From assembly GCA_964016885.1 (NCBI GenBank), contig OZ024749.1, positions 45,446,001 through 45,510,000 on the forward strand: a stretch of 64,000 nucleotides of DNA, written 5' to 3'. Positions 34,349-34,770 of the stretch are shown here, one piece after another; position 1 is the stretch's first letter, and every line of letters begins with the position of its first letter. The stretch is from Eledone cirrhosa. Lineage: Eukaryota. A model generated the notes under the pieces. It made no database searches. It was not told the origin of the DNA and saw only the letters and a list, made by a program, of their open reading frames with translations. Made by a program: the position numbers and the translations under genes.

Positions 34349-34770
34349 AAATATTAAAAAAATAATGAATAAAACAATGAAACAGTTCCTTATATTAAAC
34401 AAAAAAAGTTCATTATTTAACGATCGTTTCTAGGATATATATGTGTTAGAATTGGCATGCATATTCAACAGATCTATGTACAAAATTATACAAAATTATA
34501 CAAACTATCAAGATTAAATATACATACCAAACACACATATATGCCGTCTTCAGAAATAATTATTTCTGAAGACGGCATATATGTGTGTTTGGTATGTATA
34601 TTTAATCTTGATAGTTTGTATAATTTTGTATAATTTTGTACATAGATCTGTTGAATATGCATGCCAATTCTAACACATATATATCCTAGAAACGATCGTT
34701 AAACAATGAACTTTTTTTGTTTAATATGAGGAACTGTTTCATTGTTTTATTCATTATTTTTTTAATATTT
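34349..34770. repeat. 422-bp near-perfect palindrome with no loop, each arm containing a hammerhead motif
   Basis: Centre cagaaataa|ttatttctg (34559/34560); 211-bp arms with only 2 mismatches found; UUAUUU-CUGAAGA-...-GAAAC GAUC GUU^AAA(U/C)AA on both strands. Confidence 0.92.

Follow-up and report, generated by a model that had tools for sequence, protein, structure and literature searches.

A long palindrome in the genome of Eledone cirrhosa is the core of an ORF-less insertion that consists of two head-to-head copies of the 5' end of a Penelope-like element (PLE), assigned by its motifs to the Hydra clade. The insertion, outlined by BLAST of natural copies (L034/L035), occupies positions 34209-34773 of the window, i.e. 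of the whole 64,000-nucleotide stretch of contig OZ024749.1 that was analyzed; it is 565 bp long and sits in a (TA)n tract. The most probable reading, to which we assign a probability of about 70%, is that the palindrome is a 5'-end stump from one insertion event: both nicked strands of the (TA)n target would have primed reverse transcription, and the two cDNAs would have been joined head to head at the capped start of the RNA.

As reported in the first-pass annotation, segments 34349-34559 and 34560-34770 are spacerless reverse complements over 211 bp that mismatch at two arm positions, 145 and 169; if a third mismatch is allowed, a repeat search extends the arms to 214 bp. Among non-microsatellite perfect inverted repeats longer than 23 bp with a spacer below 12 nt, this palindrome is the only one in the window; a slightly shorter perfect repeat, 22-23 bp with a 9-11-nt spacer, lies at 1714-1760. 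The palindrome 34349-34770 had been taken for the whole unit. However, this is too small, as the left arm runs on for 137 nt as element sequence, down to position 34209. The long arm (34209-34560, minus strand) covers element positions 0-351, that is, the pseudo-LTR and a tail, and ends at one fixed position of the element, site B. It is 99.4-99.7% identical to the youngest copies, in agreement with the earlier claim of a recent insertion product. The tail (34209-34345, minus strand, positions 215-351) belongs to the 5' UTR, which leads on to the ORF in full elements. The short arm (34559-34773, plus strand) covers positions 0-214 and ends at another fixed position, site A. All differences from the family lie on this arm and are transitions, T>C or A>G (positions 145, 169 and 212; 34704, 34728 and 34771 in the window). 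The variants at 145 and 169 occur in no other of the 50 loci considered in detail below.

The insertion is flanked by (TA)n on the left (34185-34208) and on the right (34774-34855), and the target duplication is unreadable, as the flank is a pure repeat. The stop-to-stop ORF list gave no host gene around the locus, and the 64-kb window contains no further sequence of this PLE family. Folded as RNA, the whole insert is predicted to form a long hairpin (-347 kcal/mol), as would a transcript through the locus, the possible siRNA source suggested in the first-pass annotation.

Both strands carry the hammerhead core that had been annotated: CUGAAGA, a 116-nt stem II region, GAAA, a palindromic stem III and the GUU triplet, with all boxes and stems I-III of a type I ribozyme. 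Sequence and fold place the minus-strand motif at 34412-34560 (stem II at 34431-34546, predicted cut between 34419 and 34418) and the plus-strand motif, with one mismatch in stem I at 34704, at 34559-34707 (predicted cut between 34700 and 34701). Stem I of the minus-strand unit is fully paired, as stated earlier, but with 7 bp instead of 6 when the AT shared at the axis is counted. The axis itself had been placed exactly at the start of stem I; it lies 3 nt inside the intact stem, which has 10 bp in intact elements. The boxes are kept in the relatives.

The stem II fold reaches -42.4 kcal/mol, and compared with 200 dinucleotide-shuffled sequences its z score is -7.4. The constrained hammerhead fold costs 4-6 kcal/mol more than the minimum, with C and A opposed next to the core, and Rfam gave no match at the gathering score. 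Substitutions in stem II of 12 copies are mostly one-sided and pair-keeping, and one of the 27 pairs has changed on both sides; an older subfamily retains a stem II of 99-101 nt. As in the Hydra rows of File S2 of PMC8557442, stem II of the core is bounded by one additional base on either side, and the cut site tolerates U. There, the Hydra rows have a stem II of about 10-25 nt, as opposed to 116 nt here. Metazoan PLE hammerheads are described as cleaving poorly on their own (PMC4209133).

Long stem II regions (38-97 nt) were also seen in other hammerhead families, at L124:2196 (minus strand) and in L028, L039, L114, L097 and L200, and thus are recurrent in E. cirrhosa. Reads of a related organism that map to L034:2300-3400 have a variant stem II region without about 85 nt of this sequence. 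The window contains further short hammerhead-like motifs of other families at 19260-19296, 27523-27547 and 39424-39460 on the plus strand and 10640-10678 on the minus strand; the first of these recurs in one fetched locus.

The parent element, which escaped the first-pass annotation, is abundant in the 3.0-Gb, (TA)n-rich genome assembly. A search with one arm yielded dozens of 99% copies and at least 49 matches, with 40 of 613 candidates scored. An exact 27-mer occurs 533 times; for the hammerhead start plus the sequence context upstream of it, the count is 1088. Full copies have the order arm, 5' UTR, ORF, the ORF starting about 500 nt past the hammerhead core. Eight ORF starts were listed, from six places (two were fetched twice), and three of them, in L175, L177 and L179, give intact proteins of 810-813 aa. 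ORFs of other Penelope-like families were seen beside the insertions, at L045:3-1868 (minus strand), L033:2341-3999 (minus strand) and L036:2825-3451 (plus strand); the one in L045 encodes a related Hydra-type protein.

The 813-aa product is a single ORF with a reverse transcriptase (RT) that resembles telomerase and contains the YRDD motif. The best PDB matches of its AlphaFold model (pLDDT 85.7) in Foldseek are telomerase RTs, TERT (E = 2e-9); a PDB sequence search with partial ORFs gave nothing below E = 0.38 and a Pfam search with three partial ORFs found no family. Sequence motifs point to a C-terminal GIY-YIG domain (IVY..YIG, R and H at 692-722). Y694, Y707, G709, R718 and H722 are invariant across 81 aligned proteins, and one homologue carries the name GIY-YIG endonuclease. 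The GIY-YIG core is without the CCHH/CxxC cysteine pair, its two cysteines standing 8 apart. Other Hydra-type motifs are RWR at 37, DKT at 115, CxCX5C at 673 and CxxC at 771 followed by CxH.

The pseudo-LTRs are tandem or inverted with the tail at one end, as in EN+ (endonuclease-containing) PLEs, and the insertions lie in (TA)n, as in the Hydra clade. In the parts of Craig et al. 2021 (PMC8557442) that describe this clade, its members share with our element the C-terminal GIY-YIG domain, RWK-type, DKT and CxCX5C motifs, the absence of CCHH, the (TA)n target and the hammerhead features listed above. By these motifs, the parent is a Hydra-clade EN+ PLE. Besides stem II, other lengths differ from those described there. 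The tail has 137 nt instead of 30-40, and the unit is near 6.5 kb instead of less than about 3 kb, since about 3.56 kb separate the ORF stop from the hammerhead that follows; short size is given there as a typical, not a diagnostic, trait. The stretch between ORF and pseudo-LTR (3.5 kb at L035:5691-9254) is mostly (TA)/(CA) microsatellite and moves along with the element. A non-LTR retrozyme, i.e. tandem ORF-less hammerhead monomers, was also considered and rejected, as the two units are inverted, truncated and continuous with an autonomous ORF; a retrozyme preprint (10.64898/2026.07.22.740005), in the part available, likewise deals with tandem monomers.

The window palindrome belongs to a large class. 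Head-to-head hammerhead starts within 30 nt of each other define at least 344 same-axis junctions in the genome, with none in the control. Among the first 50 in genome order, which form the detailed set, 47 pair a 214 end on one arm with a 351 end on the other; the exceptions are one 214/214 locus, one nested double palindrome and one locus broken by an assembly gap. The nested insertion (L054/L055, C1:34131790-34132098) contains two cap-axis junctions 268 bp apart, and at L180:906-1479 a short cap-axis palindrome is joined to a multi-kilobase insertion. Of 75 paired loci examined, 23 had a readable target duplication, meaning a match of at least 8 letters other than pure TA, and in 16 of these it was 13-15 bp, counting in the roughly 3 nt that it has in common with either end of the element.

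For the window locus, which was read from the assembly, a fold-back artefact of the library or the assembly was also considered. This is hardly credible: the flanks differ beyond the arms, the arms themselves differ at three sites, and 344 loci have the same axis. Besides, raw Illumina reads from two independent runs of a related organism span the axis and show (TA)n beyond both ends, and the same junction is present in a contig of another organism; this support applies to the junction class and not to the window locus.

Another possibility is a self-contained mini-element, with the palindrome as a hairpin or ribozyme pair that is maintained or copied whole and serves as a dedicated siRNA source. 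The low energy of the insert fold and the identical junction string in 8 of the 50 loci would suit such a unit. However, these loci contain 28 types of junction strings, and the commonest, the 2-nt AT overlap also seen in the window, is the simplest microhomology join. Moreover, long ORF-bearing insertions have the same two outer ends, which makes a separate mini-element very improbable.

The axis is likely the transcription start of the element, as the arm starts peak at a single base and an extra G is in strong excess there. Fifty of the 100 arms of the detailed set start at position 0, a count inflated by microhomology; 42 start at 1-7 and eight further upstream (five of them ambiguous). 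The element has C before position 0, yet a G precedes position 0 in 185 cases, as compared to 10 for position 1. In 30 fetched loci the context of this G is non-element in 12, and in 18 the G could be supplied by microhomology. In two fetched loci (L106/L107 and L109/L110) both arms bear the G, and the end is repeated there in short re-copies, as re-priming at the end of a template would produce. We take the sequence at position 0 to resemble an initiator motif. An Inr-like site in pseudo-LTRs has been noted (PMC3846280), and untemplated G is described as a mark of the copied cap in LINE-1 and SVA (PMC4859970). Thus position 0 likely corresponds to the capped start of the element RNA, and the G fits a copied cap.

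Under the proposed mechanism, the endonuclease would cut both target strands about 13-15 nt apart, and RT would start inside the RNA at two sites, 214 and 351, via about 3 nt of A/T pairing. Both cDNAs, probably from one RNA or one source locus, would run through the uncleaved ribozyme up to the RNA 5' end at position 0, the presumed cap being copied as G. Head-to-head joining would then follow, by microhomology of 0-7 nt, by jumping of the RT or with the addition of a few bases. Short RNA 5' ends would leave a stump, and read-through RNAs would give kilobase arms, with either arm the longer. Among 20 mapped stretches, the arm reaching further 5' is indeed the 214-arm in six (L017, L031, L037, L102, L103, L105) and the 351-arm in two (L034, L035), which argues against one arm being copied from the other.

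The first-pass annotation had suggested a fold-back origin. In such a scheme one cDNA, or an antisense RNA, would hairpin on itself and give the second arm as a copy of the first; self-priming on an antisense template was proposed by Arkhipova et al. 2013 (PMC3846280). Private variants common to both arms in 9 of the 50 loci and the six junctions of the type fitting a 3-nt-loop hairpin agree with it. However, the tail could not be present in a copy of the 214-arm, nor could the 351-arm give a copy longer than itself, yet the 214-arm is the longer in the six loci above. The 214-arm, or both arms, can bear the cap-type G, and many loopless junctions retain both arms to position 0, which is also contrary to it. 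With the arms ending at two different fixed positions, fold-back is not the best reading, and we regard it as unlikely.

The arms nearly always share subfamily markers, and most discordant calls are alignment-edge or slippage effects; two RNAs from different source loci are thus unsupported. Marker sharing is compatible with one RNA, and also with fold-back copying at the DNA level or conversion between the arms at a later time. If the long cDNA stopped at the priming site of the short one, as classical twin priming on one RNA would have it, tail-only long arms would be expected. They are barely raised (10, as compared to 5 and 8 in the controls), and such a stop is weakly supported.

In addition to the cap axis, 69 junctions have both arm starts near 139-155, on the other strand of stem I and immediately 3' of where the ribozyme is predicted to cut. 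Flanking windows of unequal size contain 8 junctions just downstream and 19 just upstream, several of the latter centred on the stem III palindrome. Among 50 listed junctions of this second hotspot, 48 again combine a 214 end with a 351 end, and in 46 both starts are at 140 or beyond (p = 8e-10, uniform null). Position 142, that of the predicted cut product, is the start of eight of the 100 arms and forms a local peak; 73 start at 147-153. These loci are older than the cap-axis set (median tail identity 96.9% vs 98.5%, p = 8e-7). With most starts at 147-153 and only a local peak at 142, in older loci, the hotspot cannot be taken as proven cleavage; cleavage followed by trimming, a stall of the RT at stem I, a later central deletion or an older subfamily may each account for it. 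Ten of 16 cross junctions link 142 to 0, and these were not counted as cleavage evidence, as microhomology within stem I explains them equally well.

The two hotspots on opposite strands of stem I raise the question of whether the cap axis, itself inside this stem, is instead a stop of RT at the folded ribozyme or a processed RNA end, priming from both target strands being the same. The 1088 copies that read through the axis point from upstream would be in line with this. Nevertheless, a stop is quite improbable: the cliff is sharp to one base, with the G excess of 185 to 10, and an RT moving 3' to 5' would presumably have unwound stem I before reaching position 0.

Returning to two cDNAs joined at RNA 5' ends, a broader and doubtful generalization is that every insertion of the family consists of two cDNAs from two fixed RNA sites, and that the turning points record 5' ends of the RNA in vivo, mostly the cap (344) and, in the second class (69), the hammerhead cut. 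If so, this would be genomic evidence for in vivo cleavage by a Penelope hammerhead whose stem II has 116 nt, and the 5'-OH cleavage product would be retrotransposed.

The head-to-head layout with a one-sided tail is already known. Inverted-pLTR EN+ PLEs, as described in the accessible parts of Arkhipova et al. 2013 and of Cervera and De la Pena 2014 (PMC4209133), have palindromic head-to-head junctions, a one-sided tail and a target duplication as observed here, and the latter paper reports paired opposite-strand hammerheads 100-700 bp apart. Inverted 5'-truncated copies with a one-sided tail appear in PMC3846280, PMC8557442 and PMC8969392, among them a copy of Penelope-13_HM (PMC8557442). 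What is unusual here is the 116-nt stem II, the long tail and the 3.5-kb 3' region; no paper in the literature search brought together three of hammerhead, long stem II, Penelope and extended stem. In contrast to the antisense self-priming of 2013, the copies analyzed here favour two sense-RNA cDNAs joined at the capped start.

The closest experimental parallel is the Poseidon PAc system in vitro (Frangieh et al. 2024, PMC11167929), in which, as in our proposal, both strands of an AT-rich target are cut and extended, two internal RT start sites bound the tail, and uncleaved RNA serves as the template. This element belongs to another clade, and its start sites are described as non-homologous to the target, whereas here about 3 nt are shared with (TA)n; joining of cDNA to cDNA was not demonstrated in that work. 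LINE-1 twin priming, as far as it is covered in the available parts of PMC4859970 and PMC11702581, likewise has primers from opposite target strands, an end-joined inversion junction, a target duplication and a cap-derived G. However, the L1 arms are non-overlapping parts of one RNA, while the arms here overlap almost wholly, and hence a palindrome arises. No mention of twin priming was found in the PLE papers listed by the search, the subscription Penelope papers of 2004-2008 lying outside the coverage, so that earlier proposals may exist.

The window locus itself is an ordinary by-product of the element, and its value lies in the mechanistic traces across copies. For the origin of inverted PLE copies with a one-sided tail, antisense self-priming was proposed in 2013, and the joining steps of the 2024 scheme are unvalidated. 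Hundreds of near-identical stumps turn this problem into a countable rule, namely one end at 214, one end at 351, a stagger of 13-15 bp and a join at the G-marked start, and this rule is directly testable in an in vitro Hydra-clade system.
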